IMG/VR virus record: IMGVR_UViG_3300020419_000859
DNA length: 64,000 nt
Strand: one strand, 5' to 3'
DNA from: a virus
The notes under the pieces are model-generated. The model made no database searches. It was not told the DNA's origin and was given only the letters and a program-made list of their open reading frames with translations. Shown piece by piece: positions 27,601-44,982 of this stretch. Position 1 is the first letter of the stretch. Every line of letters starts with the position of its first letter. Both the position numbers and the translations under genes were made by a program.

Positions 27601-27604
27601 ACTA

Positions 27605-28402
27605 CTATTTATCTTTCATCCATTTATTGTCATCCGACCAGTCTTTTGAATTTAACCATTTTTTCTGCGTCAAATTTTCTGGTTCTGGATCCTCATCTTC
27701 GTTTGTCACAACCCAATTAACAACTTTATCAAAATCTGGTTTAGGGTCTAAATGTGTTTGATTAGTTCTTTCCATAAACTGCCATCTAAAAAGTTTACCA
27801 ACACCTGTTGACATTATAATATGTGGCTCTTGATCTACATATGGTATATGTGGCCAATATTTTTTAAATTGTTTAGGAAAACAAGAAGTAAAAGATACAT
27901 CTAAACCTTGTTCACAAAGTAAACCTGTTAGTGTAGAACAAAATAGTCCACACTCAAAAGAAATTAACGTATTTATTACTTCTAACTTTTCTTCAAATTC
28001 TTGTTCCGGATGATGGCTATCTTCGTCAATGGCCATTTTATTAAATTCATTTGATTCACAAACTCTAGACGTAAATATAAAAACATATGGTGCTGTTATT
28101 ATATGTTGATAGTTTCTATTTACAACATGTTTAGAATGATCTAGATAACCACTTTTCATAGCGTCATCTTCAACTTTGTGGTGATTCTTAATACACAATT
28201 TCCATATTCTTTCTTTTTCAGCCTGATCCTCTGGACCGATAACATTTACTCTGTAAGGCATGTATTGTTGTTTAGAAGGAGTTAGTTGCCATGCCTTCTT
28301 CAAACATTCATTTACAGTTTCTTTACTTGGTATATTTTTGTCATCATATATCCAAACGTGTTTTCGTTTTTTAAAAGTTTCGTATATATTACTTTGTGTC
28401 AT
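27605..28402 (-). CDS. Nitroreductase-fold flavoprotein
   Basis: KRKH, AWQLTPSKQ..PY, APYVFIF, ECG...L.EQGLD; paralogue of the neighbouring gene. Confidence 0.7.
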   Translation of the reverse strand: MTQSNIYETFKKRKHVWIYDDKNIPSKETVNECLKKAWQLTPSKQQYMPYRVNVIGPEDQAEKERIWKLCIKNHHKVEDDAMKSGYLDHSKHVVNRNYQHIITAPYVFIFTSRVCESNEFNKMAIDEDSHHPEQEFEEKLEVINTLISFECGLFCSTLTGLLCEQGLDVSFTSCFPKQFKKYWPHIPYVDQEPHIIMSTGVGKLFRWQFMERTNQTHLDPKPDFDKVVNWVVTNEDEDPEPENLTQKKWLNSKDWSDDNKWMKDK

Positions 28403-29216
28403 ATGGTGAGTCGTGTTTTTGGTCCTTTGCTAATTGTATTCGTCTTTTTAATTCTTCTCTATTATCAGTTGAAGTGCCTGGTGTATCTTTAACCCAATTT
28501 ATTATATCTTCAAAGTCTGCTTTTCTATCTAAATCCCAATTACTTCTTCCGTTTTCTATATCAGGACCATTTTCTTTCATCCATTGCTCTTTGTAATATT
28601 TACCATAACCTATAGAACATGTTAATAATGGTATAGTGTTAACAAAAGGTACATCGTGCCACTTTTCTACTCTTTTTGGAAAACAAGTTGTATATGTTAT
28701 GTCAATACCTTGTTCTACTAATATACCTGTTAATGAAGCTGCAAATAATCCAACTTCTATACTTGTTGCTTGTGCCAATGTTTCGTGTTGATCTGAAAAC
28801 TCTGGTTCACTAAAGTGACCGTCTTTAGCAATACACTTTTTATTCCATTCATTTGTTTTTTCTGGATCAACAGTTCTAGATGTAAATACTATTACATATG
28901 GAGCGTCTGATAAATGTTGATATGTTCTATTGACTTTAAATTTTGTTTCTGCTAATTGTTTCTTTTTATGGGCTCTGATTTCTACATCATGGTGGTTAAT
29001 CATCGCCTTATCCCATACTTTTAGTTTTTCATCGTCAAATTCTTTTTCTGGTCCTAATATATTTACTTCATATGGATAATAATTTTGTTTTGATGGTGTA
29101 CAGTGCCAGGCATGCCATAGTGCGTCTGTAATTGTTTCTCTGTTAGGTATCTTATCTTTATGATACTCTATAACGTGTTTTCTTTTTTTAAATATTTGAT
29201 AGGTTTGTGTAGTCAT
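28389..29216 (-). CDS. Nitroreductase-fold flavoprotein
   Basis: KRKH, AWHCTPSKQN.YPY, APYVIVF, IEVG...EQGID and IGY motifs. Confidence 0.7.
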   Translation of the reverse strand: MTTQTYQIFKKRKHVIEYHKDKIPNRETITDALWHAWHCTPSKQNYYPYEVNILGPEKEFDDEKLKVWDKAMINHHDVEIRAHKKKQLAETKFKVNRTYQHLSDAPYVIVFTSRTVDPEKTNEWNKKCIAKDGHFSEPEFSDQHETLAQATSIEVGLFAASLTGILVEQGIDITYTTCFPKRVEKWHDVPFVNTIPLLTCSIGYGKYYKEQWMKENGPDIENGRSNWDLDRKADFEDIINWVKDTPGTSTDNREELKRRIQLAKDQKHDSPYDTK

Positions 29217-29970
29217 TGTTTTTTATTCCTTCTAATATTTCTTTTGCAATTGCCTTGTGTCCTAGTTCGTTAGGGTGGTCGTCTAATTCTGACACTTGCA
29301 AATCTTCTTTTTTTCCATACTTACTTTTCATTTGTGTTATATCTAACATATTGTCGCCATCTAGATAAGAAGAAAGAGGCCAGTTTATAAAGTTATTTAT
29401 ATAATCCTTATAGTTAGTTATTTCTTCACAAATTTTTGTTAAATCTCTTTCTTTGTTTTTGAGTGTTTTATACGGCACTACATTATCTGTTAATTCAGGA
29501 TTTAATAATATATCTTCTTCGGTGGGTTTTAGTCCTTGATACATATTCTCAAATAAATTTCCCATTTGAAAATGACAATAAGGTAAGTTATATCTTTCGC
29601 ATAGTGTTTGAAAACTTATCATATATCTCATAGATTTTTTTACAAGATTTAATAAATCTGATTGAGGATCAACTCTTAAAGAATGCCAAGTGCTAAACCA
29701 ACCTTTTTGATAGTCTTTTCTATGAGATTGTGTCCAACCAGCTATAACCATACCTATTTCTTCTTTAGGTGTTTTCATTATTTCATCTTGTATAGTACTA
29801 TAAATGTAATCATTGCCTTGACCACCTTTACCTAAACAAATTAGTTTCATACCTAATTCTTTTGCAACAAGTTCAGGCCATTTTGGATAAGAAAAGTCCC
29901 ATGTAGGATGGCAGATTGATTCAAAATTTATATCTGAACAACTATCGCCACTAACTATTAATTTTTTCAT
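29188..29970 (-). CDS. SGNH/GDSL-hydrolase-like protein
   Basis: SGDS nucleophile block, GGQGN and DDHPNELGH (DxxH). Confidence 0.65.
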   Translation of the reverse strand: MKKLIVSGDSCSDINFESICHPTWDFSYPKWPELVAKELGMKLICLGKGGQGNDYIYSTIQDEIMKTPKEEIGMVIAGWTQSHRKDYQKGWFSTWHSLRVDPQSDLLNLVKKSMRYMISFQTLCERYNLPYCHFQMGNLFENMYQGLKPTEEDILLNPELTDNVVPYKTLKNKERDLTKICEEITNYKDYINNFINWPLSSYLDGDNMLDITQMKSKYGKKEDLQVSELDDHPNELGHKAIAKEILEGIKNNDYTNLSNI

Positions 29971-30259
29971 AAAATAATTTATTAAACGCTATTTTCAATT
30001 TTTGTTTTGGTTCTTCTTTAAAGTTTAAAGGTCCGTAATCATATTCGGGCATTAAATAAGTTTTCTCTACAATATACTCATACACTGGTTCATGTTCTTT
30101 GTCAACTAGTGTTTCGTCAAAAATGTCACTAGTACCTAATGCTCTTTTCATCATCTGACAAGTCTTAATAAGATTTTGATCTGCTACAGGAACAGGATTG
30201 CCTTTACTGTCTATATAACTAACTTGATCTAATTTTTCGTTTGCTATTATTTCAATCAT
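29951..30259 (-). CDS. Hypothetical protein
   Basis: ORF overlapping both neighbours in the operon. Confidence 0.6.
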   Translation of the reverse strand: MIEIIANEKLDQVSYIDSKGNPVPVADQNLIKTCQMMKRALGTSDIFDETLVDKEHEPVYEYIVEKTYLMPEYDYGPLNFKEEPKQKLKIAFNKLFYEKINS

Positions 30260-31326
30260 AGATTATTTAATATACCATTACAAGTATCTTTTATTTCCTC
30301 ATCTGTTAACCATGGATGTATAGGTAAAGTTAATATAGTTTTACTAACATTTTTGGCATTTTTACAATTGTCACTTCTATGTTCTATATTTTTATACATA
30401 GGTCTTTCTGAAATAGGTTTTTCATAGTGTACTTGAGCACCTATCTTTTGTTTTATTCTATCTCTTGCCTCGCCACCTTCAACAGGATCTCCTTCATCAA
30501 ATCTTATAATATATTTGTGATACGTATGATTGAGACCGTTAGTTGGTTTGTGTACGTACATATAACCATCTAATTGTTCGTCATATTTTTTTGCTATGGC
30601 TTGTTTTGCCTCAATATATTGATTTAATTTTTTTAATCTATAATCTATAAACTTTGCGTTAAAGAATAACATTTTAGAGTTATATCCTAATACCTCGTGG
30701 TTACCATGTTTTCTTAATTTGATACACATATCAGCGTAGTCTTTGTTATCTGTCAATACCACGCCACCTCCGGCGATCCCACCTATTGTTTTGTTCGCAT
30801 TAAAGCTTATTGTACTTAATTCTCCTAGAGTACCTGCTTTAGTGCCATTAAGACTAGAACCTATGGCCTGAGCTGCGTCTTCTACAAACGCTATATTTTT
30901 CTCTTTACAAAATTTTAATATCTCTGTCACATCTGACATACTACCAAATAAATGTGGATAGACAATTGCTTTTACTTTGTCTGAATACATACGTTTGATA
31001 CTGTCAAGTGATATATGATAAGTGTATGGGTCTATATCACAAAATACTGGTGTTGCACCTACCATAGATATACAAGACGCTGTTGATATCCATGAGAAGT
31101 TGGTTGTTAATACTTCGTCTCCTGGTTTTACACCTAAACATTTTAAAGAAAACATTAAAGCGTCTGTACCGTTTTGACATGCAACGGCATATTTTCTTGG
31201 TATTATACTTGTGATTGTTTTTTCTAGAAACTCTATGTTTTGTTCCTGATTTTCTTTCATGCATTCATCAAAGAGTTTAGTATAGTTCTCTTTGTCATGC
31301 TCATATTCATATTTCCATGCGTCCAT
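30256..31326 (-). CDS. DegT/DnrJ/EryC1/StrS PLP-dependent sugar aminotransferase
   Basis: NGTDAL, GDEV, GATPVFCD, EDAAQA, SFNANK (Schiff-base Lys) and LTLPIHP. Confidence 0.93.
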   Translation of the reverse strand: MDAWKYEYEHDKENYTKLFDECMKENQEQNIEFLEKTITSIIPRKYAVACQNGTDALMFSLKCLGVKPGDEVLTTNFSWISTASCISMVGATPVFCDIDPYTYHISLDSIKRMYSDKVKAIVYPHLFGSMSDVTEILKFCKEKNIAFVEDAAQAIGSSLNGTKAGTLGELSTISFNANKTIGGIAGGGVVLTDNKDYADMCIKLRKHGNHEVLGYNSKMLFFNAKFIDYRLKKLNQYIEAKQAIAKKYDEQLDGYMYVHKPTNGLNHTYHKYIIRFDEGDPVEGGEARDRIKQKIGAQVHYEKPISERPMYKNIEHRSDNCKNAKNVSKTILTLPIHPWLTDEEIKDTCNGILNNL

Positions 31327-31706
31327 TATTTTATATCCTTTGCTACTTTTTTACCTTTTTCAAAATACGTTTCAACTTTTACTGCGTCATCTTCTTGTCT
31401 TGCTTTACAATGATGAAGACACGTTTTCAATATACTATTTATGTTGTCTCCTATATCTCTAGCCTGGATCAAGTCATTTTCAAACTTCTTCCATTCTTTC
31501 TGATCTAGTATGTCATCTATACTATTATGATCTTCTAACTTACTAACTTTATAAAGAGGTTGATACTTTTCATCTTTTGTTGTTTTAGGGTGATCACACC
31601 AACAACAAGGTAATAGATGACCTCTGTTATCTATCGCCAAAGGCATAGGCACAAAGCTTTTATCGTCTGGATCAGGCAGACATTTAGGTTTAATTTTTAT
31701 ATACAT
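31326..31706 (-). CDS. Stand-alone SPASM/twitch-like Fe-S domain protein
   Basis: KC...IDNRGHLLPCCWC...CxxxC; lies directly downstream of a short radical SAM gene. Confidence 0.6.
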   Translation of the reverse strand: MYIKIKPKCLPDPDDKSFVPMPLAIDNRGHLLPCCWCDHPKTTKDEKYQPLYKVSKLEDHNSIDDILDQKEWKKFENDLIQARDIGDNINSILKTCLHHCKARQEDDAVKVETYFEKGKKVAKDIK

Positions 31707-32316
31707 CGTTTTTAGATTTTAAAGCTTTTGTTGGCATAAAAGGATCGTCATCACTCAACCACCTTGAAGACTCTACAGATATAAAACTTAATCCTTCGTC
31801 TTCAGCCATTTTTTTACAAGTATCAATATCATTTTCATTATAGTTAAATCTTATACATTGCCATACAGGTGTACTTAATAAATGTTTCTTAGCCTCTTTC
31901 ATTATTTCAAACATTTTCTCCCCATCTTGGTTTTTCCTATACTTGTGGCTGTCTTTTGGTAAACCGTCACAAGCAAAAATCCAAACTGCTTTAGGGTTTG
32001 CTTTCCAAGATTTAATATACCAAGATATTGGTTTAGCTGTAGCTGCATTATGAACAAATACCTCTGGCACATCTTTTAATTCTTTCATTATCTCATTAAA
32101 TTTAGGGTGATGTACAGGATCAGATAACTGACCACAAAAAGCAACATCTTTAAAAAACTTTGCAATCATTTTAATTTCTTTTATAGTTAAGTCACGACCA
32201 TGTGGTACTAGGCCGTTATTAGTAAAAGATGTTTGCCTTTGACAATTAGGACATTCAAGAGGACACCTATGTGTCACATCTAAATTTAATCTACGTCTTT
32301 GTTTAAAGTATGTCAT
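31690..32316 (-). CDS. Radical SAM protein (core domain only)
   Basis: CPLECPNC, CGQLSDP, DGL..SH..YR and FNYNE. Confidence 0.85.
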   Translation of the reverse strand: MTYFKQRRRLNLDVTHRCPLECPNCQRQTSFTNNGLVPHGRDLTIKEIKMIAKFFKDVAFCGQLSDPVHHPKFNEIMKELKDVPEVFVHNAATAKPISWYIKSWKANPKAVWIFACDGLPKDSHKYRKNQDGEKMFEIMKEAKKHLLSTPVWQCIRFNYNENDIDTCKKMAEDEGLSFISVESSRWLSDDDPFMPTKALKSKNDVYKN

Positions 32317-33172
32317 TCATTGCCTTTATAATAACTTCTATATTTGGTTTGTTAACAGGATCAGTAAGACAGTTTGCTGGTCTTTTATAGTAAATAGGTC
32401 CTGCGTCTTTAATATTTTTATCTCTTGCATATATAAAATTCATTCCAAAGAAACGACACTCTTGCATTAATCTTGGTGCCGGATCAAATGTATGTTTAGT
32501 ATAAACGTAAGTATCAAACATGCCTAATAAATTCTTTACAGGTACAAATACATGATTTAAATTATAATCTATGTACTTATCTTTATATGCCAAGATACCA
32601 TGATTTTGGTATTTGTGAATATGTTTTTTTAGTTCAGTATAATAACTTTCGTTTGTACCTAAAAACAAATATTTAAACTTAACTTCTCTGACTATAGGTT
32701 TATATACACTGTAGTTAATAATCTTTTCAAATTGTCTACCAACACCATTAGTATAAACTTCATGGTCGCATAAGTCAATTACTTTTTCTGGTTTAAAAAA
32801 TTCTAGTGCTAAAGGATATTCTTTTGGATGATTTTCTGAATATACTGATATAAGAGGTTTCTTAAATAACAAACGTAAAGTTAATTGTGTGTCTTTATCA
32901 TAATCTTTAATACTCTTATATGCCAGAGTTATCATACTTCTACCCATGATTAAATTTACATCAGCTTCTTCATAATCAAAATACACATGTTTGAAATGTA
33001 TATACTTTTCTGTTAAGGCCTCTATGTAAGTTTCTTTGGTAAATTTATAGTGAGGTATAATTATAAGTTTTGCGTTAATACCTAAATCATTTAGATATTG
33101 TACTTGCTCAAAGCTATAATGCATTAAGCCGTCACCTGGTTTAGAAGTCACTATTACGTTTAATGTACTCAT
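32303..33172 (-). CDS. Hypothetical protein, possibly a GT-B-like fragment
   Basis: First gene after a sigma70 promoter; the FDPAPRLMQEC segment loosely resembles a GT-B donor-binding motif. Confidence 0.5.
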   Translation of the reverse strand: MSTLNVIVTSKPGDGLMHYSFEQVQYLNDLGINAKLIIIPHYKFTKETYIEALTEKYIHFKHVYFDYEEADVNLIMGRSMITLAYKSIKDYDKDTQLTLRLLFKKPLISVYSENHPKEYPLALEFFKPEKVIDLCDHEVYTNGVGRQFEKIINYSVYKPIVREVKFKYLFLGTNESYYTELKKHIHKYQNHGILAYKDKYIDYNLNHVFVPVKNLLGMFDTYVYTKHTFDPAPRLMQECRFFGMNFIYARDKNIKDAGPIYYKRPANCLTDPVNKPNIEVIIKAMNDIL

Positions 33173-33177
33173 ATATT

Positions 33178-33206
33178 AATATAACATATTATAAAATCAA
33201 AGTCAA
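33178..33206 (-). promoter_or_regulatory. Sigma70-type promoter for the minus-strand enzyme operon
   Basis: TTGACT-N17-TATATT with an extended TG. Confidence 0.65.
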
Positions 33207-33829
33207 TGCCAGTTGATTATATCTTTGATTTCTGGTTTATATTCATTATGCTTTTTGTCTCTCCAAAATGGATTATCTTGATTCGTATGTTTATAACCAA
33301 GTGCCATAGCAAACATAATTTCATCATCAATAAATTTTAGTTTTTCATCATTCCATCTTTCATCATTATTGTTAGATAAACACAATATATAAGATACGTC
33401 TAAACCTTTTTCTAAACATAATGCTGATAGTGTTTTAGCAAACATGCCAATTTCTATAGCTACATCAGCTTCATAATCTTTATATCTTTTAGGATCAGTT
33501 AATGGATAATCGTGCCCTAAATTAATTTTTCTTTGTGTTTCTGGATTAGGTTTATCAACAAGTCTTTTTGTAAATACTAAAACATATGGTGCTTGTAGTT
33601 CGTGATTTTTGTTACCACCTTTTGTAGAAGAAGACAATTTATATAATAAGTTTTTTATTTCTTTTTTAGACTTATCTAATACGTGTATTTTATATGGTAT
33701 TAAATTTTGTTTTGAGGCCACACAATCGTATGCTTTTGATAATAATGTTTCAATCATTTCTTTTGATGGCACATTATCTTTAGAGTATACTTTGATTTGT
33801 TTTCTTTTTTTTAATATATCTTCAATCAT
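33203..33829 (-). CDS. Nitroreductase-fold flavoprotein
   Basis: KRKQIKVYS, ASKQN..PY, APYVLVF, IEIG...EKGLD and LGY motifs. Confidence 0.75.
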   Translation of the reverse strand: MIEDILKKRKQIKVYSKDNVPSKEMIETLLSKAYDCVASKQNLIPYKIHVLDKSKKEIKNLLYKLSSSTKGGNKNHELQAPYVLVFTKRLVDKPNPETQRKINLGHDYPLTDPKRYKDYEADVAIEIGMFAKTLSALCLEKGLDVSYILCLSNNNDERWNDEKLKFIDDEIMFAMALGYKHTNQDNPFWRDKKHNEYKPEIKDIINWH

Positions 33830-33834
33830 ACTTC

Positions 33835-33855
33835 TATTTATATCTCATATAAATA
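33835..33855. promoter_or_regulatory. Divergent pair of T4-type late promoters
   Basis: TATAAATA on the minus strand (33835-33842) and on the plus strand (33848-33855). Confidence 0.75.
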
Positions 33856-33878
33856 GTTATATACAGAATGGAGGCTTT

Positions 33879-34037
33879 ATGACCATAAAAGAAACGCATA
33901 AAAACTTAAAAAAGAAAGTTAATGAGTTAATCGGTATAAGAAGATCAACTAGAGATTCTAAAAGTTGGTTAGATTTGAGAGAGTTAAAAAAATGGAAATT
34001 AAGAGCAAAAGACAAACTGTTAAAAAGTAAAAAATGA
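33879..34037 (+). CDS. Small basic coiled-coil protein (DUF465/YdcH-like)
   Basis: GGAGG RBS then ATG 33879; H..L...V.EL...LKK.KL..KD.L pattern. Confidence 0.6.
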   Translation: MTIKETHKNLKKKVNELIGIRRSTRDSKSWLDLRELKKWKLRAKDKLLKSKK

Positions 34038-34495
34038 AAACATATCAATACGATCTAGAAAAAATCAAACAAGAGTTATCTACTCTGCCAAATTATAACA
34101 AACAGTTATACTTACAAGGGTATTCAAAAGACATGAATCCTGAAGAAGGAGCTGGCGATGGCTATGCCATAGATAGCGTAGAACACACTTATAATATACC
34201 TCTTTTTGATATACCTTACATTAATAGTATAATGCAAGAACATAAACTTACTAGAACGAGATTGATGAGAATGAAACCAAAATCATGCTATCTATGGCAC
34301 AACGACTTAACAAAGAGATTACATATACCAATTGAAACACATGAACATTGTTTTTTGATATTAGATAATGACAGATTTCATATATCAGCCACAGGTGAAG
34401 CGTATGTGATAGATACTACAAAAAAACATACGGCGTTAAATTGTTCAACAATAAATCGTGTTCATATTGTTGGAGGTTTGCCAAATGACCAATAG
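34034..34495 (+). CDS. 2OG-Fe(II) oxygenase, aspartyl/asparaginyl beta-hydroxylase-like
   Basis: HxD (WHND), RLHIPIET, distal H (HTALN) and R.H.V. Confidence 0.8.
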   Translation: MKTYQYDLEKIKQELSTLPNYNKQLYLQGYSKDMNPEEGAGDGYAIDSVEHTYNIPLFDIPYINSIMQEHKLTRTRLMRMKPKSCYLWHNDLTKRLHIPIETHEHCFLILDNDRFHISATGEAYVIDTTKKHTALNCSTINRVHIVGGLPNDQ

Positions 34496-35837
34496 ATTTC
34501 CTACGGCCGATGAAAGATGGCCTAGAGCAGGAGAAGTTATAAAAGAAGATATACTTTATGACGCCGTTATTACATCACTGCCAGGCATGGACAAAAGTAA
34601 ACCGGCACCTGGTCCTTCTTTTCTAAAAGGTTACCTAGAACCATTAGGTTTTAAAATTAAAGTTATTGACGGCCATATGTATGACACGTTAGATAATATA
34701 GAAAAAGAAATATCAAAATACAATTTTAAATGGCTAGGTATATCAGTATTTTCTTTTATGCAAAAAGAAGATGGTTTACAATTAGGTAGAAGATTTGAAA
34801 ATGTATTTTATGGTGGTTCAGGTGTTGATATTAAATGGCCAACTCCTTATTACATAGTAGGAGAAGGAGAATATGCTTTACGTGAGTTCTTAAACGGCAA
34901 CTTTGATTATCCAGGTATTAACGGAAAACTACCAGTACAGATAGAAAACATAGAAGACTTACCACCACCAGATTATTCAGACGTAATACAACATCAAAAA
35001 TATAGAAAGTTTATAATATCAGGATCAAGAGGTTGTGTTAGAAACTGTACCTTTTGTGATGTTGCAAGTATATGGCCTAAATTTAGATGGAAGACAGGTA
35101 AAAAAATTGCCGATGAAATGCATACGATATCTGAACAAACAGATATAAACAGAGTACACTTTTCAGACTCATTAATCAATGGTTCTATGAAACATTTTAG
35201 AGATTTGTGTAGAGAGTTATCTAGCAGACCTAAAAAGATTAAATGGGAGGCACAGTTTATTGTGAGAGATAAAAAAACTTTCTCACAAGAAGACTTTGAC
35301 AATCTAGCAAATTCTGGTTGCAATGCTTTAGAAATGGGTATAGAAGCTGGTAATGAAGAAGTTAGAGATCACATGAGAAAAAAGTTTAGCAATGAAGATA
35401 TAAAATACTTTGTAGAAAACCTAGGAAAACGGAATATTAATATGAAGTTCTTACTGATTGTCGGATATCCTACGGAAACGGAAAAAATGTTTGAAGATAC
35501 TCTACAACTATTAAGAGACTATGCAAAGTATTCACATTTAATTGCCGTATCTCACCACGTAATGATGACTTTTAAAAATACTCCATTAGATTTTGATCAT
35601 AGAGAGTTATTTGATAATGAGTTCGGATTTAAATGGAAAAATGAAAACTCTGATTTTGATATAAGATTTGAAAGATTTATAAAAGTATATGAATTAGGAA
35701 AAGAGTTAGGTTACCATTTTCAAGCACACTGTTTAGAGAAAATAGAAAGATACAAATCCGATAAACTTAATGAAGATAGAAAGTCTATAGGATTTGCTCA
35801 CCCTAAAAAGAAAAATCAATTACACGTACAATCTTAA
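34485..35837 (+). CDS. Cobalamin-binding radical SAM enzyme (class B methyltransferase-like)
   Basis: N-terminal B12-binding-type segment (P..GP..L...L, GISV, GG, GEGE), then SRGCVRNCTFC, GIEAG and IVGYPTET. Confidence 0.85.
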   Translation: MTNRFPTADERWPRAGEVIKEDILYDAVITSLPGMDKSKPAPGPSFLKGYLEPLGFKIKVIDGHMYDTLDNIEKEISKYNFKWLGISVFSFMQKEDGLQLGRRFENVFYGGSGVDIKWPTPYYIVGEGEYALREFLNGNFDYPGINGKLPVQIENIEDLPPPDYSDVIQHQKYRKFIISGSRGCVRNCTFCDVASIWPKFRWKTGKKIADEMHTISEQTDINRVHFSDSLINGSMKHFRDLCRELSSRPKKIKWEAQFIVRDKKTFSQEDFDNLANSGCNALEMGIEAGNEEVRDHMRKKFSNEDIKYFVENLGKRNINMKFLLIVGYPTETEKMFEDTLQLLRDYAKYSHLIAVSHHVMMTFKNTPLDFDHRELFDNEFGFKWKNENSDFDIRFERFIKVYELGKELGYHFQAHCLEKIERYKSDKLNEDRKSIGFAHPKKKNQLHVQS

Positions 35838-37441
35838 AAAGATTTATTAAATCCTAAAGTAAACTTTCTTCCTTCTTGACTAAATCCATGAGGTGATTCA
35901 TAATTTTCATCAAGCAGATTTAACAAACTAACACCAAAGTCTATACCATAATAATTATATCCAAGATTTAAATCTAACAAATGTGTTTCAGGCATTGTTA
36001 TAGTTGACCAATTAGAATTATGTACATCTAAATGTCTGCCTTTATATTTGTAATTAGTAGTTATAGAAAAGTTATTTTCTAATTCTTTTGTATGCATAAA
36101 ACCAAGAGACCAGTTAGGTCTTCTTAATTGTACTACATCAATTTTTTTACTATTTAAATGACTAATAAAAAATTTAGAATTTTCTTGATTATAACTAAAC
36201 TCTATACCGTCAGTATTTAAATCGCCAATATCATTTTTAAATATAGTTGTTGCAAAATTATTTTTAGTTAATGTTAACTCTTGTGATTCTCCGTATTCAA
36301 TAGCAGTCCATGTTGTTTTATCTTTATAACTTGTTGATGTACTACCACTTATACTCAAACCATCTTCTATCTCTTTAAAGAAACCTAATTTATATGTTTC
36401 GTGTTCTTCATCAAACCTATGATGATATGAAAATATATTATGTGAAAAATTAAAGAAGTATCCTAAATTATGATGTTGACCTGTTAATGATTCATTATGT
36501 TTGTAATCAAAACCAAATCCATATTTTTGTTTTTGATGTGTGCCTCTTATAGTATAGTTTTCACTTTCATAATGAGCATTATCATAATCTCTATCATATT
36601 CGTGTGTATGAAAAGTTAAACTGTTATTTAAATAATCAACACCTGTTTGTAAGGCAAAGAAAGTATTATCTGCCCATTTGCCGTCTTGTATAGAAACATT
36701 ATGACCATCTATGTCAGTGAAAGTGTTTCTTGCAAACCAAGATGTTCGCCAATGTACAAGATCGTACCATTTACTTACATTAACACCTATTGTTTTATTA
36801 TTTGTTCCATCTTTTTCGTCAGCACCTGATAAAGCAGAAACGTTTTGTGATTTATGCTCACCTGCTGAAACAGATATATCAAAGTCATTTAATCTAGTAT
36901 AATAATTACCACTAATAGTTTTATCATTACCATTACCACCAACACTTAATCTTTTATCATAATCTACTGTTGTTCTAAAATTAATTGCACCACCAACAGC
37001 GTCTGCTCCCCAATGAGCACCTTGTGACCCTTTGTATACATCTATTTGTACAACATTGAACATAAAGTCTTGACCAACATCATGGGCACCTGTAGGTGTA
37101 GAGTAATCATTGATTGGTATTCCATTTAATAATACTAATGTGTGATTAGAGTTTGTGCCTCTTAAAAACACCGATGATTGTTGACCTGTAGGACCCGATT
37201 GAGTTATGTCTAAACCTTGAACATAGTTTAATACTTTAGGTAAATCAATTAGATTATACTTTTCAATTTCAGATTTTTTAATTGTATGAGTAGGTGTTAT
37301 CTTATCGCCTAATGCGTTTGAATTGTTTATGTTTGGATAAATTGTAAGACAAGGAATATCATCATCCCATTTACAATCATTTTCTTTGGAATAGGCAACA
37401 TTAGCCCATACCAAGATTAATATAAGAATTAATCTTATCAT
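35834..37441 (-). CDS. btuB: TonB-dependent outer-membrane receptor, BtuB-like (cobalamin)
   Basis: Signal peptide; plug motifs SSVFLRGTNSNHTLVLLNGIPIND and IDVYKG...WGADAVGGAINF; NLLDENYE and terminal Phe. Cobalamin riboswitch directly upstream. Confidence 0.88.
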   Translation of the reverse strand: MIRLILILILVWANVAYSKENDCKWDDDIPCLTIYPNINNSNALGDKITPTHTIKKSEIEKYNLIDLPKVLNYVQGLDITQSGPTGQQSSVFLRGTNSNHTLVLLNGIPINDYSTPTGAHDVGQDFMFNVVQIDVYKGSQGAHWGADAVGGAINFRTTVDYDKRLSVGGNGNDKTISGNYYTRLNDFDISVSAGEHKSQNVSALSGADEKDGTNNKTIGVNVSKWYDLVHWRTSWFARNTFTDIDGHNVSIQDGKWADNTFFALQTGVDYLNNSLTFHTHEYDRDYDNAHYESENYTIRGTHQKQKYGFGFDYKHNESLTGQHHNLGYFFNFSHNIFSYHHRFDEEHETYKLGFFKEIEDGLSISGSTSTSYKDKTTWTAIEYGESQELTLTKNNFATTIFKNDIGDLNTDGIEFSYNQENSKFFISHLNSKKIDVVQLRRPNWSLGFMHTKELENNFSITTNYKYKGRHLDVHNSNWSTITMPETHLLDLNLGYNYYGIDFGVSLLNLLDENYESPHGFSQEGRKFTLGFNKSF

Positions 37442-37444
37442 GTT

Positions 37445-37546
37445 GAGTCTCCTTGCTCGTTGTATGGCCTAGGTGGCATTCGGAGTATAACCGTATCAAG
37501 TAATCTGAACGAATTTCACGTCACTTTCCCACTACGCTTTTAGGCC
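37445..37546 (-). ncRNA. Class-II cobalamin riboswitch (AdoCbl-variant type), translational
   Basis: Minus strand reads GGCCTAAAAGCGTAGTGGGAAAGTGACGTGAAATTCGTTCAGATTACTTGATACGGTTATACTCCGAATGCCACCTAGGCCATACAACGAGCAAGGAGACTC. It has a closing GGCCTA/TAGGCC stem, GTGG/CCAC, a GGGAA core and a terminal GAG/CTC hairpin whose loop holds the AAGGAG RBS. The hairpin ends 3 nt before the btuB ATG. Confidence 0.93.
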
Positions 37547-37562
37547 ATTATTATATAACTAT

Positions 37563-37591
37563 ATAGTATCACATTTAATCCAAAATGGCAA
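37563..37591 (-). promoter_or_regulatory. Sigma70-type promoter for riboswitch-btuB
   Basis: TTGCCA-N17-TACTAT with an extended TG. Confidence 0.75.
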
Positions 37592-37600: not shown

Positions 37601-37608
37601 TATAAATA
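37601..37608 (+). promoter_or_regulatory. T4-type late promoter
   Basis: TATAAATA, 5 nt before ATG 37614. Confidence 0.75.
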
Positions 37609-37613
37609 ACTGT

Positions 37614-37964
37614 ATGGCTGGCATAGCAAACTTAACAATAGATCAAGGATCAAATTTTACTTACGACCTAGAAGTCACTAACTCTGACGGATCGGCGTTT
37701 GATCTTACTGGATTTACAATGGTTGCTAAAACGGCTCAAGGATATGCAACTACTTACCCTAGAGTATTGTTTACTTGTACTTGTACAAGTGATATGGCAA
37801 AACTAGGTGTTGTGACTATTAGTTTAACTGCTGATCAAACAAAAGCTATGAAAGCTGGTCGTTGGGTTTTTGATGTTGTTGCAACTCACACTGATAGTAC
37901 GGTTACTCGTTTATTAGAGGGTATCGCAATTGTCACACCGTCTGTAGTAAAAGCCTTTACTTAA
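37614..37964 (+). CDS. Small beta-sandwich virion/fibre-associated protein
   Basis: ANLTIDQGSNF...DLTG...ISLTADQT..MKAGR.VFDV...TRLLEG...TP pattern recognised from marine T4-like phages. Confidence 0.65.
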   Translation: MAGIANLTIDQGSNFTYDLEVTNSDGSAFDLTGFTMVAKTAQGYATTYPRVLFTCTCTSDMAKLGVVTISLTADQTKAMKAGRWVFDVVATHTDSTVTRLLEGIAIVTPSVVKAFT

Positions 37965-39357
37965 TATATTCAAATACTGCTTTGTTCATACCTTTGTGAA
38001 TAAGTTTAAACTCTGCTTTGTTCATAAAATTTTCTAAACTAGCCCATTTCAAGCCAGAAATATCGTCAAATACCCATACAGTTTGATCTGCTTTTCTTTG
38101 ATTAAAGAAAACGGCCTCTTTCAAAACAGATAATGTATCATGTGGACCATCAAAGTGTATCATTTCGTATTTGTCTACCATTCTTTTATATTCATCATAG
38201 ACAGGATAACCATCAGGAAATCTATTCATAAATTCAGTGTCTTCAAAATTAACTAAATGAAACTCTGGATAATCTTCAGCAAAGTTTATTATTGTAGTTT
38301 TTCTCATTAAATTATCATAGTTAAACTTTCTTGCTAATACACTATCAGAAGCTGCATAGTCAATATTACCATAAGGGTCAACACCTAAATGAACAAGAGA
38401 AGTTTTAGGGTGATGATGTCTATATGCGTCTATAATAGTTTTACTTCCTAGACCTAATCTAACACCAATCTCCATACTTGCACCTATAGGATTTTTTAAT
38501 CTTTTTACTGCGTCTGCTAATGAATTATATTCAACACTGTCGCCTGTAAATTTTTCTCCTTCGTTTACTTCTAATGCATATTTTCCTGTTTCAGGATCAA
38601 TACCTGGATATACTCTTTTAACTGCTTTTGCAGTCTTATCAATAAATCTAGTATCTTTGGCACCTTTGCCTTCAACTTCCGTTTTATATGTTGTTGTATC
38701 GTGACCTAAATCATTTACTGTTGGTACTTTAGTTTCAGCAAACATATCACGATTATTCATAATTTGACCAACTTGAAACGTACTATTACCTGTGTGTCTA
38801 CAACGTATTGTAGTATCAGCAAATATTTTAAATCCTTTTGATCTTGCTTTTCTACAGAAATCAACATCTTCAGAAACAGTATTGTTATGATCTAGTGCTG
38901 AGTGATAAGTGAAGTAAGGATAACCAACTTTTCTAAAAACTTCACCTTTAATCAAAGCACAACCCATACCACACGCAACTATTTCAAAGAAAGGATTGTC
39001 TTTACAGTTTTCAAATGGTATACGTCTAGAGCCGCCGTTAGGACCTGCTTCGTAAATTTCTAATGAGTGTGTACCTGGTATTCTTTGTATATAAAGACCT
39101 GACACTATATCTACATCATGTTTTACCATTTTGACTAGTGTATCTTTATCAAAAGCGATATCACTATCTACTGAAAACAGATAGTCATAATGTTCAGCCC
39201 ATGAGGCTATTAAATTTCTTATTTGATCTATTTGATATCCATAAAAGAATTGAAACTCTACTTTAAATCCTTCTGGTGCTGTTAAATCGTATATTGCTTT
39301 GTATGTATCCGGCTCAATATACTTGTTTGTTGGAATTGCTATTAATATTTTTTTCAT
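37957..39357 (-). CDS. GT2-like glycosyltransferase fused to a class I methyltransferase
   Basis: N-terminal RN...YLFSVDSD, GMGCALI and SEDVDFC; C-terminal EIGVRLG, GVDPY, IHFDGPH and VFDD. Confidence 0.85.
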   Translation of the reverse strand: MKKILIAIPTNKYIEPDTYKAIYDLTAPEGFKVEFQFFYGYQIDQIRNLIASWAEHYDYLFSVDSDIAFDKDTLVKMVKHDVDIVSGLYIQRIPGTHSLEIYEAGPNGGSRRIPFENCKDNPFFEIVACGMGCALIKGEVFRKVGYPYFTYHSALDHNNTVSEDVDFCRKARSKGFKIFADTTIRCRHTGNSTFQVGQIMNNRDMFAETKVPTVNDLGHDTTTYKTEVEGKGAKDTRFIDKTAKAVKRVYPGIDPETGKYALEVNEGEKFTGDSVEYNSLADAVKRLKNPIGASMEIGVRLGLGSKTIIDAYRHHHPKTSLVHLGVDPYGNIDYAASDSVLARKFNYDNLMRKTTIINFAEDYPEFHLVNFEDTEFMNRFPDGYPVYDEYKRMVDKYEMIHFDGPHDTLSVLKEAVFFNQRKADQTVWVFDDISGLKWASLENFMNKAEFKLIHKGMNKAVFEYIK

Positions 39358-41384
39358 TGGTTAATTATCCTATTTGCATTTTTTGTTTGTTCGTCACTGT
39401 TAATTTTATAATCATTAAGAGGATTTATATCATTATAATTATAGACTATATCAGATACTACTTTTACTTTATTCGGATCGGCTTTTTCTATTAGTGTATA
39501 GAATATAGAACCGTCTCCGCCGGCTTTGTACCATTTTTTATTTTCATCTTGAAAATTGCTGTCATCACAACCATTTAAAAGTCCTGCTTTAAATGTTCTT
39601 AAATGTGTGTATGGCATATTCCAATTGAATTTATATTTTCTATATTCTTTTTTTCTTTTAATTTCTTCTGGATAGTTTTGCGCTACTAAAGGTATTTTGT
39701 CTACCATTGAATAACATGACCCATAAGTAAATTCTGTAGTGCCGTCATAAAGATTATTATAATATTGTAATATCTGATTATCATTTATAAATGAATCATC
39801 GCCATCTAAAAACATAACAATGTCATCTTCATTACAATATTTTCTTATAGACTCTATTTGATTTCTAACAGCGCCTTTATTTTCTTCATTACGAATCACC
39901 TTTATCCTATCAGATTCAAATTGTTTGGCAACGTTGTAAGTATCATCTGTAGAACAATCATCAATTACAATCATTTCGTAATTATCATAATCTTGTGTAA
40001 TAACTGATCTAATACAATTTGCAATATATCTTTCTGAATTATAAGTAGGCGATATAATAACAATTTTTTGTTCTTTTCTTCTAGGTATATAATTTTCTTC
40101 TAAATTTGTAAATCTTCTACCAAATACTTCTCTAACTCTTGAATTGATATAACTTACTTTTCTATATTCATCTACAGGTAAATAATGTCCTAACATTCTG
40201 TAGAAGTGTTGTTTCCATTGTAAAGCAACAGAGTCCCAACCAACAATACCTTTTATCATATTACAAGCATATTGTTTTTGTTGATGTAAATATCTATTGT
40301 GATGTGCCATTAATACTTCGCCTACAAATTTTTCTACTTGTCTTTTTTTAGGTATAAATGGAAATAAAGAGTTTGGCTCTATTGCATAATCAATTAAATA
40401 ACATGCTGATGATACAGCAGTTTCTTCTAAAGCACCAAAACGTGTAGTGATTAAAGGTGTGTTATATGCGATTGCTTCTAAAGAAGATATACCAAACGTT
40501 TCAGGAAAAGCACCTGGAAATAATTTATAACTTGCTTTGGCCATTATATCTGCTATTTCAGATTGTTTAATAACTCCTGTAAATTCTATTCCTAGTTCTT
40601 TGTTTTTAGGGTCTTGTGACATCTTTAGCCATTCTTGACCTTGAGCGTCCATCTGTCCATCTTTAAATGTGTAAAAACCACCAATACATATTAATCTTGC
40701 TTCAGGTATTTTTTGTTTTACTATAGGCCAAATATCTTCTACTAAAGGTTTCATGCCTTTTGTGAAAGCTGCATTGAACACATAAAGATATGGATCTTTT
40801 TTTCTTATATCAATTTCATTATGATATTGTACTATACCATTTCTTGTTTGAAAAAATCTATGTTTTAATACTTCAAAATTTCTACGTTTACCATGATCAC
40901 AATTCATAACATACGTTGAATGAAAATCAGATAAAGTAAATATTTCATCTATATGACCTTGTACTAATAGGTCTTCTAACATAAGATCGCCGTTTGCAAA
41001 TGTGTCATGCATCCAAACTACTTTATGTTTTGCGTTTGCTTTAATATGTCTATATCTTTGAGGTTGATATCCTTCAAAATGTTTATATTGATTAGGTGCT
41101 AAAAAAGGTATAATTGTTCTTAATGAAACAACAATATCAAAGTTAAAATCGTTTTTGTAATCTAAAATAGAATTATCTAGGTACTGTACACCGTCATAAG
41201 TTCCTTCTCTTGCAAGATTAGGATCACTATTACAGTTATTAAATATTGTGACTTTAAAACCTAACTTTGATAAGTTTTTGGCCATTAAGATAGTTGCAGA
41301 CTCGGAACCACCTAGACCTCTCTTTGTCAACGTGTCGCCATCATATGGTAGGCCAATTATGTCTAAAAATGCTATAGAAATCAT
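39354..41384 (-). CDS. Bifunctional glycosyltransferase (GT4-like plus GT2)
   Basis: GGSE, WMHD and ETFGISSLEA (GT-B), then IISPTYN, IDDCSTD and FLDGDD (GT2). Confidence 0.9.
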   Translation of the reverse strand: MISIAFLDIIGLPYDGDTLTKRGLGGSESATILMAKNLSKLGFKVTIFNNCNSDPNLAREGTYDGVQYLDNSILDYKNDFNFDIVVSLRTIIPFLAPNQYKHFEGYQPQRYRHIKANAKHKVVWMHDTFANGDLMLEDLLVQGHIDEIFTLSDFHSTYVMNCDHGKRRNFEVLKHRFFQTRNGIVQYHNEIDIRKKDPYLYVFNAAFTKGMKPLVEDIWPIVKQKIPEARLICIGGFYTFKDGQMDAQGQEWLKMSQDPKNKELGIEFTGVIKQSEIADIMAKASYKLFPGAFPETFGISSLEAIAYNTPLITTRFGALEETAVSSACYLIDYAIEPNSLFPFIPKKRQVEKFVGEVLMAHHNRYLHQQKQYACNMIKGIVGWDSVALQWKQHFYRMLGHYLPVDEYRKVSYINSRVREVFGRRFTNLEENYIPRRKEQKIVIISPTYNSERYIANCIRSVITQDYDNYEMIVIDDCSTDDTYNVAKQFESDRIKVIRNEENKGAVRNQIESIRKYCNEDDIVMFLDGDDSFINDNQILQYYNNLYDGTTEFTYGSCYSMVDKIPLVAQNYPEEIKRKKEYRKYKFNWNMPYTHLRTFKAGLLNGCDDSNFQDENKKWYKAGGDGSIFYTLIEKADPNKVKVVSDIVYNYNDINPLNDYKINSDEQTKNANRIINQ

Positions 41385-41492: not shown

Positions 41493-43415
41493 ATGCCGGT
41501 AATTAAGAATGCAGGTGTTCGTGTAGGTCTAGGAAGAATAGGTTTCACAGGATCAGCAGGACCACAAGGTTTTACAGGATCAAAAGGGGATAAAGGTAGT
41601 GACGGCTCACCAGGAGGTTACGCCGGTTCACAAGGTTTCACAGGATCACAAGGTTTACAAGGACCTGCCGGTGGTTACACTGGTTCAGAGGGTGCTGTAG
41701 GTTTCACAGGATCACTTGGTTATACTGGTTCATCAGGAACAACAGGTTTCACTGGATCAGTTGGTGCTCAAGGACCTGCCGGAGGTTTTACAGGTTCAGT
41801 TGGTTATACTGGTTCTGCCGGAGCAGGTTACACTGGTTCTAAAGGCGACACAGGTTTTGATGGCTCAGTAGGATTTACAGGTTCAAAAGGCGATATAGGT
41901 TTTAGTGGTTCTAAAGGAGACGCAGGTGCCGATGGATCAGATGGTGCTGTAGGTTTTACAGGATCAAAAGGCGATCAAGGTGTAATAGGATTTTCAGGCT
42001 CTAAAGGAGATACAGGCGCCGTAGGTTTTTCAGGATCAAAAGGAGATACAGGAGCTGCAGGTGCTGATGGTGCTGACGGTGCTGTAGGTTTTACAGGATC
42101 AGCTGGCGTAGGTTATGCCGGTTCAGCAGGAGCAGGATTTACAGGATCTCAAGGTCTTGTTGGTTTTACAGGTTCAGCAGGAACAGGTTCAGATTCACCT
42201 TTAGTATTCACAACTTCAGGAGATTATAGAACACTTACAGGATTTTTAGAAAGTGGTTCAACAAGTACTATAAGAACAGCAGAGTTTCATGGTGACTTAT
42301 TAAGATTAACTCTTGCTACATTTACTCCTTCTTTTTCAGCTTCATCAACTCCAAGTTCATCATTAAATTGGGATGTTTCTTGTACAGGATTTTCTGTATC
42401 AGTAGATAACCCTAGTGATGTCACAAACGATTTTATAAGTTCAGTTTACTCTATCACTCAAACAAGTGGAAGTGTTAACGGTACTTTGTCTAATTATACG
42501 GCAGGTAGTTTTTCACAAACACCAGCAGGTGGTGTAGATTGGAATCAATCTTTCACTGTAGACAATTCAAATTCATATATTAGATCAACATCAACTAATC
42601 GTAGTGGTGGCTCAGCAGGCGCAACAGTTAAATTTAATCATAATGACGGCAGTGAATCAGAATACACGGCTTCTGATACAAGTTTTTCCGTTAACTGGTC
42701 AACAGCGTCTATGAGCGTATCTAAAAATAATGTCAGCGGAAAGACATTTTTAAAAACATATTCAAGTACCTCTTACAGTACAAGTGTAAGCGGCCTCAAT
42801 AGTTCAAGCAATAGTTCACATTCGCTTTCGGCTACTGGAGGTACTTTGAACAATACATCTGGCAGTGGTTATGTCAGTGGAACATTTACATTCACTGATC
42901 CTATCCATAAAGATAACACAGGTACTACTCGTACAATTAGTAATACTTGTACTTTCACAAGACCTGCCAATGTAACCGGTACATCGTACACTGTAGATCA
43001 ATCATCTACAACATCTAGCGTATCTGCTTCGTTCACATATCCAAGTTTTTGGATTTGGACTTCAAGTACAGGATCCCCTCCAACACTTACGGATATAATA
43101 GACGATTCTGAAAGTACCGGTTTTAACTCTAACACGAACCAATTGGCCAATCAGACTCATGATTTTTCCGTCCAAGCAGTGAACAATACTGATTCTAATC
43201 CTCGTGCTTTTTGGTTCGCTGTTAGAAATTCGGTTACACAACCGACAACATTTAAAACTGGTGCAAGTTCAGCTCTATTGAGTGATGTATCTACAACAGA
43301 TGGTGGTACTCTTTCTTTAATACCAAATTCACCACCTAGTGGATTAACAGGTGAATCTTATCACTTATATGGAATTACACTTCAACCAGGAACAACTTAT
43401 GTGGAGATTAGTTAA
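41493..43415 (+). CDS. Collagen-like fibre protein with Ser/Thr-rich C-terminal domain
   Basis: About 220 aa of Gly-X-Y repeats (GFTGSxG), then a beta-rich domain. Confidence 0.85.
   Translation: MPVIKNAGVRVGLGRIGFTGSAGPQGFTGSKGDKGSDGSPGGYAGSQGFTGSQGLQGPAGGYTGSEGAVGFTGSLGYTGSSGTTGFTGSVGAQGPAGGFTGSVGYTGSAGAGYTGSKGDTGFDGSVGFTGSKGDIGFSGSKGDAGADGSDGAVGFTGSKGDQGVIGFSGSKGDTGAVGFSGSKGDTGAAGADGADGAVGFTGSAGVGYAGSAGAGFTGSQGLVGFTGSAGTGSDSPLVFTTSGDYRTLTGFLESGSTSTIRTAEFHGDLLRLTLATFTPSFSASSTPSSSLNWDVSCTGFSVSVDNPSDVTNDFISSVYSITQTSGSVNGTLSNYTAGSFSQTPAGGVDWNQSFTVDNSNSYIRSTSTNRSGGSAGATVKFNHNDGSESEYTASDTSFSVNWSTASMSVSKNNVSGKTFLKTYSSTSYSTSVSGLNSSSNSSHSLSATGGTLNNTSGSGYVSGTFTFTDPIHKDNTGTTRTISNTCTFTRPANVTGTSYTVDQSSTTSSVSASFTYPSFWIWTSSTGSPPTLTDIIDDSESTGFNSNTNQLANQTHDFSVQAVNNTDSNPRAFWFAVRNSVTQPTTFKTGASSALLSDVSTTDGGTLSLIPNSPPSGLTGESYHLYGITLQPGTTYVEIS
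41530..42190 (+). repeat. Gly-X-Y coding repeats (GGW TTY ACW GGW TCW units)
   Basis: Degenerate tandem 9/18/27-nt repeats; the same units recur at about 43745-44340, 45225-45735 and 47224-47310. Confidence 0.85.
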
Positions 43416-44938
43416 TGTCTAGTAATTACGACGGATTAACCAGAAACGTATGGCCAGGTACATGGAGTACCGGGACTAACTCCCCTATAGTACTTGATAC
43501 AGAAATTAGAGGTACTTTACATTCTATCACAGGAGATAGTGGAGATAGATTAACAGATATTCCAGGTGCTAGAATACAAGAAGGTATGTTAGTGTATGTT
43601 AAAACAACTTACACATCAGGATCAACAACATACACAGGAGATAATTACTACACTTACAAACTTCAAGGTTCTGAATCTAGAAATTCATCAACAGGTGCCG
43701 TTCCTAATGCAGACGCAAACTGGTCATTGTTCAGTGTATCAGGTGGTTCGGGTTATACAGGATCAGCAGGTGCAATTGGATTTACAGGTAGTAAAGGTGA
43801 CGTAGGATTTACCGGCAGTAAAGGTGATGACGGCGCTACAGGATTTACAGGATCAAAAGGAGACGCAGGTTCAGCCGGTGCAGTAGGATTTACGGGATCA
43901 AAAGGAGACGCAGGTTCAGCCGGCGCAACAGGATTTACCGGTAGTAAAGGCGATCAAGGTGTAATAGGATTTTCAGGATCAAAAGGAGATACAGGAGCTG
44001 CAGGTGCTGATGGTTCAGATGGTGCAGTAGGATTTACCGGCAGTAAAGGAGATTTAGGATATTCAGGATCAAAAGGCGATATAGGTTTTAGTGGTTCTAA
44101 AGGAGATACAGGAGCTGCTGGCGCTGATGGTTCAGATGGCGCAACAGGATTTACCGGCAGTAAAGGAGATTTAGGTTATACAGGTTCAATTGGTTACAGT
44201 GGTTCAAAAGGCGATCAAGGTGTTATTGGTTACACAGGATCAAAAGGCGATTTAGGATATTCAGGATCAAAAGGCGATACAGGTTTCAGTGGTTCAAAAG
44301 GTGATCAAGGTGTTATTGGTTACACAGGATCGGAAGGAAATTTAGACGTATCAGTTTCGTCAACTCCACCAGGTTCAGCAGGACTTGGCGATGTTTGGAT
44401 TGATGACGCAACAGGTATTCAATATTTCTACATGAACGATGGTAATAGTAATCAATGGGTAGAATTATCCAACCAAGGTGTCGTAGGATTTACCGGCTCT
44501 GCTGGCGCTAGCACATTATCAGCTCTTACAGATACAACTATTAGTACTCCACAAAAAGGTCATACTTTAGTTTATAATGGTTCAGGTTGGGTACAAACAC
44601 AAACTCCAATTTCACAATTTGTGGTGACAGCAAATGGATCAAGTGCATATAGATTTGATGGTGCAGGATTTCCGTCAGGTACAAGTGGCGATAATCCTAC
44701 TATCTATCTTAAAAAAGGTCAAACATACTACTTTAGAAATACAAGTGGTGGTCACCCATTTAGAATACAATCAACAACAGGTACTAGTGGTACAGTATAT
44801 AACACAGGCGTGACAGATAATAACGCTTCAGGACCTAACGGTGTTGTTGTATTTCATGTTCCTATGGACGCTCCTGCGACATTATACTATCAATGTTCAT
44901 CGCACGGTTCTATGGTAGGAACAATTACTATAGTTTAA
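43415..44938 (+). CDS. Collagen-like fibre protein with C-terminal cupredoxin-like domain
   Basis: GFTGSKGD repeats, a GDVWID...QWVE module, and NPTIYL..GQTY.F...HPF...YYQCSSHGSM. Confidence 0.85.
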   Translation: MSSNYDGLTRNVWPGTWSTGTNSPIVLDTEIRGTLHSITGDSGDRLTDIPGARIQEGMLVYVKTTYTSGSTTYTGDNYYTYKLQGSESRNSSTGAVPNADANWSLFSVSGGSGYTGSAGAIGFTGSKGDVGFTGSKGDDGATGFTGSKGDAGSAGAVGFTGSKGDAGSAGATGFTGSKGDQGVIGFSGSKGDTGAAGADGSDGAVGFTGSKGDLGYSGSKGDIGFSGSKGDTGAAGADGSDGATGFTGSKGDLGYTGSIGYSGSKGDQGVIGYTGSKGDLGYSGSKGDTGFSGSKGDQGVIGYTGSEGNLDVSVSSTPPGSAGLGDVWIDDATGIQYFYMNDGNSNQWVELSNQGVVGFTGSAGASTLSALTDTTISTPQKGHTLVYNGSGWVQTQTPISQFVVTANGSSAYRFDGAGFPSGTSGDNPTIYLKKGQTYYFRNTSGGHPFRIQSTTGTSGTVYNTGVTDNNASGPNGVVVFHVPMDAPATLYYQCSSHGSMVGTITIV

Positions 44939-44982
44939 TTTAAAACTATTGTATTATATAAGAATTTGAAGAAGAAATAACT

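Follow-up and report, generated by a model that had tools for sequence, protein, structure and literature searches.

The window analysed here, a 64,000-nt stretch of viral DNA from IMG/VR record IMGVR_UViG_3300020419_000859, carries a cobalamin (vitamin B12) module at one locus. On the minus strand, a class-IIa cobalamin riboswitch aptamer (37466–37546) and its expression platform (37445–37458) precede the gene for a compact, 535-aa BtuB-like receptor of the TonB-dependent type (btuB, 35834–37441). On the plus strand, the gene for a 450-aa radical S-adenosylmethionine (SAM) enzyme of the cobalamin-dependent type, or class B (34485–35837, with an alternative GTG start at 34458), converges on btuB, and the two stop codons overlap in a TTAA at 35834–35837, as an earlier reading of the letters alone (here the sequence-only reading) had described. 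Each part of the module is of an already known kind; the combination is real and widespread. We consider it likely that the module provides feedback-controlled import of B12 early in infection, driven by the energy of the host Tol system, and late use of that B12 by the radical SAM enzyme in phage tailoring.

The riboswitch is the single Rfam match in the window. It matches RF01689 (AdoCbl-II, adenosylcobalamin class II) at 73.5 bits (E = 2e-16), where the gathering score is 36.5, and spans model positions 1–81, which is the full length. After the aptamer come a 7-nt linker, the 14-nt P13 hairpin with AAGGAG in its loop and then the ATG at 37441; P13/L13 is the predicted kissing partner of L5. 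All 28 named pairs, including the L5–L13 kissing loop, are kept in 10 natural variants, and both sides change in a compensatory manner in 4 of the 28, a count from few, related sequences that is supportive only. The pair U45–A99 and the pairing of 47–50 with 92–95 are kept in 10/10 variants, A97 and G98 are left unpaired, and the window RNA thus has the two bulged purines and the ribosome-binding site (RBS) within L13 that are expected of an L5–L13 kissing loop. Minimum free energy folding did no better than shuffled sequences (z = −0.6), as expected of an RNA with a tertiary fold, and that result was not used. The sequence-only reading had called an intact class-II cobalamin riboswitch at 37445–37546 with the RBS in its last hairpin loop, and had proposed a search with the Rfam cobalamin models; the full-length match and the AAGGAG loop bear it out. 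Membership of the window RNA in class IIa of the cobalamin riboswitches is shown or nearly shown by this analysis; as in env8, its kissing loop would hide the btuB RBS upon binding of methyl- or hydroxocobalamin.

The window RNA closely resembles the crystallised env8 riboswitch (env8HyCbl, or env8Cbl-IIa; GenBank AACY021350931.1, PDB 4FRN and 4FRG), with which it was compared at published landmarks. Both have the receptor at 1–81, a 7-nt J1/13 and P13 at 89–102, and they agree at A9, G12, U13, G19, A20, U45, A46, A68, G96, A97, G98 and A99. We take env8 to differ from the window only at position 39, with C in env8 and U in the window; the C39 variant occurs in loci L007 and L019, where the pair with G25 is kept. 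Identity of the window RNA with env8 is strongly suggested by these landmarks. One sentence in the env8 literature names A48, whereas the mutants in the same paper are of A46 (PMC5028336); the window has A46 and U48. The env8 RNA favours methyl- and hydroxocobalamin, represses about 8.5-fold in Escherichia coli and acts by a demonstrated kissing-loop, RBS-hiding mechanism (PMC5028336). Its origin is stated only as marine metagenome (PMC7367189), and the env8 papers examined mention neither a phage source nor a downstream gene. An env8-specific pattern search gave 44 matches, 27 in viral and 17 in metagenome stretches, all in phage DNA, and 17/17 of the metagenome matches precede btuB among phage genes. 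Because env8-like matches lie in phage DNA and the chromosomal switches of SAR11 bacteria differ in sequence type and have a longer platform, env8 looks like a phage regulatory element.

Three variations on the switch were seen in related loci. An additional GC-rich element of about 70 nt stands between promoter and cobalamin switch at L008:983–1052 and likewise in L009, L010 and L260; it is closed by a stem of 9 bp, contains a GGCCGG able to pair with a 3′ CCGGCC as a pseudoknot, is missing in the sister allele L272, has no Rfam match and is a candidate tandem RNA regulator. In SAR11 and some phage switches, a conserved structured extension of about 75 nt, outside the Rfam model, replaces the short P13 after the aptamer (L082:7880–7960, L020:9908–9985 and L072:9375–9460). 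Finally, L028 and L030 are sister receptor alleles with a common promoter, one of which has an exact window-type switch inserted while in the other the promoter leads directly to the ATG; the switch seems, from such alleles, to move by recombination.

The receptor gene was called BtuB-like and TonB-dependent by the sequence-only reading, and the predicted structure agrees. The protein has a Plug domain, and its model (pLDDT, the predicted local distance difference test score, 71) consists of a plug and 22 barrel strands; the 12 top Foldseek matches are all E. coli BtuB (template modelling (TM) score 0.72–0.82), and BtuB is also the sole solved relative found by sequence. Plug, 22-strand barrel, C-terminal aromatic residue and, by eye, a signal peptide are the features of a TonB-dependent transporter. 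A BtuB fold is thus shown or nearly shown by the model. The profile search proposed alongside the structure prediction turned out less favourable: the best NCBIfam models are BtuB models, but TIGR01779, the highest-scoring of them, gives 97.1 bits, far below its cut-off of 599.7, and the receptor is about 60–80 residues shorter than BtuB. The protein is BtuB-like yet, by this score, no member of the BtuB equivalog, and cobalamin transport is predicted indirectly, from the riboswitch and from co-occurrence.

At its N terminus, the receptor carries a CxW...PC motif and a strand in TonB-box register (residues 23–37; 37331–37375, minus strand), common to the phage clade and SAR11 receptors. The strand, CLTIYP, sits in this register with the Cys pair and a Pro, and is opened by the second Cys of the motif. 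The nearest cellular relatives are Pelagibacteraceae proteins with 30–35% identity. In a quick tree, 27 phage receptor rows form one phage-only clade (Shimodaira–Hasegawa-like approximate likelihood ratio test (SH-aLRT) 99) that is sister to 15 SAR11 rows (SH-aLRT 99; joint 100); this tree came without a one-clade test, and we claim no donor or direction of transfer from it. The arrangement is similar to that of the E. coli btuB riboswitch–BtuB–TonB/ExbBD–BtuCDF system, in which a translational cobalamin switch likewise precedes a receptor with a plug and 22-strand barrel. It differs in that the switch is of class IIa instead of the AdoCbl class I, the receptor is shorter with a Cys-pair N terminus, and the module is phage-borne, with no TonB or BtuF found.

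The convergent gene encodes a radical SAM domain, with CxxxCxxC at residues 184–191 and a PF04055 match at E = 7e-21. Similar to the known class B enzymes, it combines an N-terminal Rossmann-like domain with the radical SAM barrel: MgmA, OxsB and TsrM can each be superposed on both domains of its model (pLDDT 87), and comparison with MgmA, TsrM, OxsB, TokK, CysS and PhpK gives Z scores of 17–27. Identity to this set is only 13–20% and no family cut-off is reached; for the PhpK-type P-methyltransferase model TIGR04479 the score is 101 bits against a cut-off of 600. The sequence-only reading had named the gene a B12-binding radical SAM gene. The radical SAM domain and two-domain architecture stand, and 26/48 aligned family members hit the B12-binding domain PF02310 at E ≤ 0.01, but the window protein itself has no PF02310 match. 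The architecture of a cobalamin-dependent radical SAM enzyme is shown or nearly shown by the model, and cobalamin use is likely from this architecture and the genomic context.

Two of these results weigh against a B12 supply line from receptor to enzyme. The sub-cut-off TIGR01779 score is one; the other is that the enzyme model fits AprD4 (Z 27.2, r.m.s.d. (root mean square deviation) 3.2, 373 residues aligned) as well as it fits MgmA (Z 27.4, r.m.s.d. 3.6, 365 aligned), and AprD4 is not known to use cobalamin. The receptor might accordingly carry another ligand, or the enzyme might be AprD4-like and work without cobalamin, in which case their adjacency would be no supply chain. The short, low-scoring receptor, the AprD4 tie and the missing PF02310 match speak for this alternative. 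It is nonetheless quite unlikely, given that this receptor family has a cobalamin riboswitch ahead of it in phages, as it does in 16/19 of the SAR11 genomes with a receptor, that more than half of the aligned enzyme family hits PF02310, and that receptor and enzyme strongly co-occur.

The promoters on the two strands are of different types. Before btuB lies TTGCCA-17-TACTAT with a TG extension (37563–37591, minus strand), a sigma70-type, early-type promoter. The site that the sequence-only reading had pointed to is thus present, but it does not stand out by itself: the AT-rich region holds 37 promoter-like sites against 32.5 ± 6.8 expected by chance, that is, no excess. Because of this, the call rests on position, which is kept before btuB in relatives both with and without the switch. 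On the plus strand, a T4 late promoter, TATAAATA (33848–33855), stands upstream of a 52-aa open reading frame, a hydroxylase gene and the radical SAM gene. The open reading frame (33879–34037, plus strand), first after TATAAATA, has homologues in L008, L015, L017 and L018 and no Pfam match. The hydroxylase gene (34034–34495, plus strand) encodes an Asp/Asn β-hydroxylase-family 2-oxoglutarate (2OG)–Fe(II) oxygenase (PF05118, E = 3e-7) with HxD and distal His present, and almost every close relative likewise has it upstream of the radical SAM gene; late promoter and 2OG–Fe(II) hydroxylase had both been recognised from the letters. A second late promoter, starting at 33842 on the minus strand, stands back to back with the first across 33842–33855, with one AT-rich spacer, and the pair would drive a nitroreductase operon and the hydroxylase–radical SAM operon in opposite directions.

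The module was placed in a T4-like virion region by the sequence-only reading, and T4 virion genes are indeed present in the window; its portal protein is 77% identical to that of Pelagibacter phage Mosig and 62% to that of OM43 phage Melnitz. The module lies between VrlC and the neck genes, which is the host recognition cluster defined for pelagimyophages (PMC7029224). From its T4 virion module and an island order similar to Mosig's, the window is, at the level of sequence, a Mosig-like T4-type SAR11 phage (pelagimyophage), and we infer SAR11 as its host. In Mosig the flanking enzymes are similar and the adaptor gene is present, but the btuB slot is occupied by another set of enzymes, and no relative of the window receptor, radical SAM enzyme or switch was found in the GenBank SAR11 and OM43 phage isolates searched. 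The adaptor gene, for tail-fibre assembly, lies with its late promoter at 37601–37964 (plus strand); on the right, this fixed element bounds the btuB slot, whose content varies.

A chimeric assembly is very unlikely, and a chimera or a recent, inert host insertion, which the sequence-only reading had named as fatal to its proposal, is left with a negligible chance. About 25 independent IMG/VR viral contigs repeat the gene order of the window, the G+C content at third codon positions of btuB (0.15) is inside the range of core phage genes, the reading frame is intact, the RNA pairs are conserved, and the 27-row phage-only clade stands at 30–35% identity from host genes. This explanation is largely refuted.

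To what extent the parts travel together was read from the 49 contigs that carry the enzyme clade of the window and have sufficient flanking sequence. Between enzyme and adaptor, 13 have the receptor with the switch, 12 the receptor without the switch (apparently leaderless where inspected), 10 a second receptor lineage that is accompanied by DUF6580 and preceded by a hybrid sigma70/late promoter, and 14 have no receptor in the locus. The alignment of locus L163 with the window runs through the region, save for a gap over the switch and the btuB start. When loci are instead picked by their adaptor gene, both genes are present in 6 and the enzyme by itself in 3, while none has btuB by itself and 34 have neither (Fisher p = 1e-5, kinship ignored). 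At the slot of the window, btuB occurs only alongside the radical SAM gene, and two separate receptor lineages fill it; elsewhere, in different layouts, further clades of B12 radical SAM genes have btuB nearby. The receptor thus tends to follow the enzyme, and the switch is optional. The association that the sequence-only reading had proposed to survey in marine viral contigs is there across phages, whereas its picture of sensor, transporter and consumer as a fixed unit is not.

Several of these observations count against the supply proposal: the enzyme lacks a receptor in 14 of the 49 contigs, the switch is missing in 22/35 receptor-bearing contigs, the co-occurrence counts are not phylogenetically independent, and 7/27 phage-clade receptor rows have no B12 enzyme in the fetched locus (partial contigs), 4 of them adjoining class I nrdA/nrdB genes. 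The importer could instead meet a general or replication-related B12 need, with the enzyme neighbourhood as one of several landing sites. Such a need would fit btuB lying beside nrdA/nrdB, thyX, pstS or tRNAs in other phages, as well as the presence of the same switch–btuB unit near nrdA in L016. The adjoining reductases, however, resemble class I enzymes of two subunits, a class that does not depend on B12, and B12-binding proteins are present in 3/5 long phage records and in the contig of L020, leaving this explanation only a slim chance.

Other receptor-bearing layouts were noted in passing. Loci L072–L080 belong to a separate group of large phages, with riboswitch–DUF6580–btuB adjoining a terminase-like gene and a separate receptor lineage. 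In L041, L047 and L049, btuB shares an operon with B12 radical SAM genes, a number of small genes that look like oxygenases, a methyltransferase and a transporter of the TctA family. The Flavobacteriaceae metagenome-assembled genome contig L097 (PACV01000025.1) has the phage adaptor–DUF6580–btuB–radical SAM layout, and is probably, from its gene content, a misbinned phage fragment.

The same logic recurs on the host side. In a sample of 151 Pelagibacteraceae genomes, the receptor is present in 19 (about 13%); DUF6580 accompanies it in 19/19 (20 of 151 in all) and the AdoCbl-II switch in 16/19 (17 of 151 in all). A B12-binding domain (E < 1e-5) is found in 17/19 receptor-positive and 14/132 receptor-negative genomes. 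The riboswitch–btuB–DUF6580 cassette occupies SAR11 islands, for example at L082:7800–9870 and in L081–L096, and cassettes and B12 radical SAM genes sit among glycosyltransferase and epimerase genes; we found no paper on this cassette. It shares with the phage module a sister receptor clade, the Cys-pair motif, the switch class and the nearby enzyme type, and differs in its receptors of about 620 aa, its DUF6580 gene and its longer expression platform, where the phage version has a 535-aa receptor, a minimal env8-type switch and no DUF6580. The three-part logic seen in the phage thus has a counterpart in SAR11 genomic islands, which the sequence-only reading missed.

A full MetH, methylmalonyl-CoA mutase and any BtuF-type protein were all missing from five receptor-positive SAR11 genomes, and the visible B12 consumers in these genomes are the island radical SAM enzymes. 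With MetH and the mutase absent from btuB-positive genomes, what the switch reads is probably B12 imported by the cassette itself and not a host pool, contrary to the earlier idea that the phage senses host B12. Most SAR11 hosts seem to lack B12 uptake, which would give an enzyme-carrying phage reason to bring its own importer.

The receptor could instead import B12 mainly for host island enzymes or for a change of the host surface (O-chain, superinfection exclusion), and not for the adjacent enzyme. SAR11 B12 radical SAM genes and the btuB cassette do lie among glycosyltransferase and epimerase genes, the 14/132 receptor-negative genomes with a B12-binding domain could profit from an outside importer, and O-chain modification by the island has been proposed (PMC7029224). 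We nevertheless regard service to the host as unlikely, since btuB is found at the slot only with the phage enzyme, twice independently.

The supply line that we favour requires the receptor to be energised. The sequence-only reading had the phage installing its own importer; only the outer-membrane step is encoded, and the genes of the window include no visible partner of the TonB, ExbBD, BtuF or DUF6580 kind. TonB_C was found in 0/151 Pelagibacteraceae genomes and 0/5 phage records, though a divergent TonB may exist. Searches for TonB_2 in five genomes and for DUF6580 in five phage records also found nothing, but their search controls were likewise empty. The ExbB-type gene in three SAR11 genomes is tolQ only, the inspected locus reading tolQ–tolR–tolA, and TolA is present in 60/61 SAR11 genomes. 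Because no TonB was found, we propose host TolQRA as the energiser. When the phage receptor was modelled in complex with the C-terminal domain of a SAR11 TolA, a stand-in for the TolA of the actual host, the score was 0.63 against 0.00 for the best control, a mark also reached by 58/80 solved pairs and 2/110 mismatched pairs. At least 76% of contacts recur between runs, the partner has a pLDDT of at least 78 and the interface includes receptor residues 23–37.

A solved structure exists for BtuB in complex with TonB (2GSK), and TolA and TonB are related in fold. The model's pass may therefore stem from likeness to 2GSK, which, together with the absence of any inner-membrane carrier from the genes found in the window, tells against the proposed import route. 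Docking of TolA on the TonB-box region is a lead, and host TolQRA probably energises the receptor.

The module would then act as an accessory B12-supply cassette of SAR11 myophages. Host RNA polymerase would transcribe btuB early; the receptor would insert into the outer membrane and import cobalamin, with the inner-membrane step left to a host or other carrier (DUF6580 in related cassettes). Rising cobalamin would make the switch stop btuB translation, closing a feedback loop, and the late-expressed radical SAM enzyme would use the cobalamin, most likely to place a methyl group on an unactivated carbon or phosphorus. The target would lie in the island tailoring pathway, in virion fibre proteins or in surface-glycan decoration. 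An importer would pay off as most SAR11 hosts seem to be without B12 uptake. Early and late timing and the modified substrate are suggested by promoter motifs and gene neighbourhood only. The class of enzymes that cycle methylcobalamin fits the methylcobalamin preference of the switch. More tentatively, and as less likely than not to hold in full, we put forward a wider picture in which a phage-run B12 supply line is joined by TolA-driven receptors in both phage and SAR11 and by an env8 that is natively phage, the first cobalamin riboswitch tied to a virus.

A literature search, which left most subscription papers outside, found no report of a phage btuB or a phage cobalamin riboswitch. A pelagimyophage survey lists no riboswitches (PMC7029224), and a later study reports only glutamine riboswitches in these phages (PMC9004378). 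If the proposal is true, phage auxiliary metabolism extends from nutrients such as phosphate to the regulated import of a vitamin cofactor, and infected SAR11 cells may be a sink for scarce marine B12, the phage seemingly fetching a vitamin that the core metabolism of its host appears not to use. The much-studied env8 riboswitch, basis of an RNA imaging tag, would gain a natural home and a target gene. A question of membrane energetics also arises, with a TonB-type receptor working in a lineage where TonB was not found, and the locus directs attention to the surface-tailoring islands of phages and hosts as places of cobalamin radical SAM chemistry yet to be characterised.

The surroundings of the module hold further genes of interest. 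A large tailoring cluster (18706–33829 and 37957–41384) adjoins fibre genes with collagen-like repeats (41493–48303) and includes epimerase-like, QueC-like and SufT-like genes, twitch and other radical SAMs, a carbamoyltransferase, a DegT aminotransferase and glycosyltransferases. Three nitroreductase-like paralogues lie in the island (27605–29216 and 33203–33829); for these nitroreductase-fold genes, a BluB identity was considered and dropped, as the two tested did not match the NCBIfam BluB model. Finally, judged from its sequence, a gene at 1669–2610 encodes a PstS-like phosphate-binding protein, and phage pstS has been described in pelagimyophages (PMC12379486).

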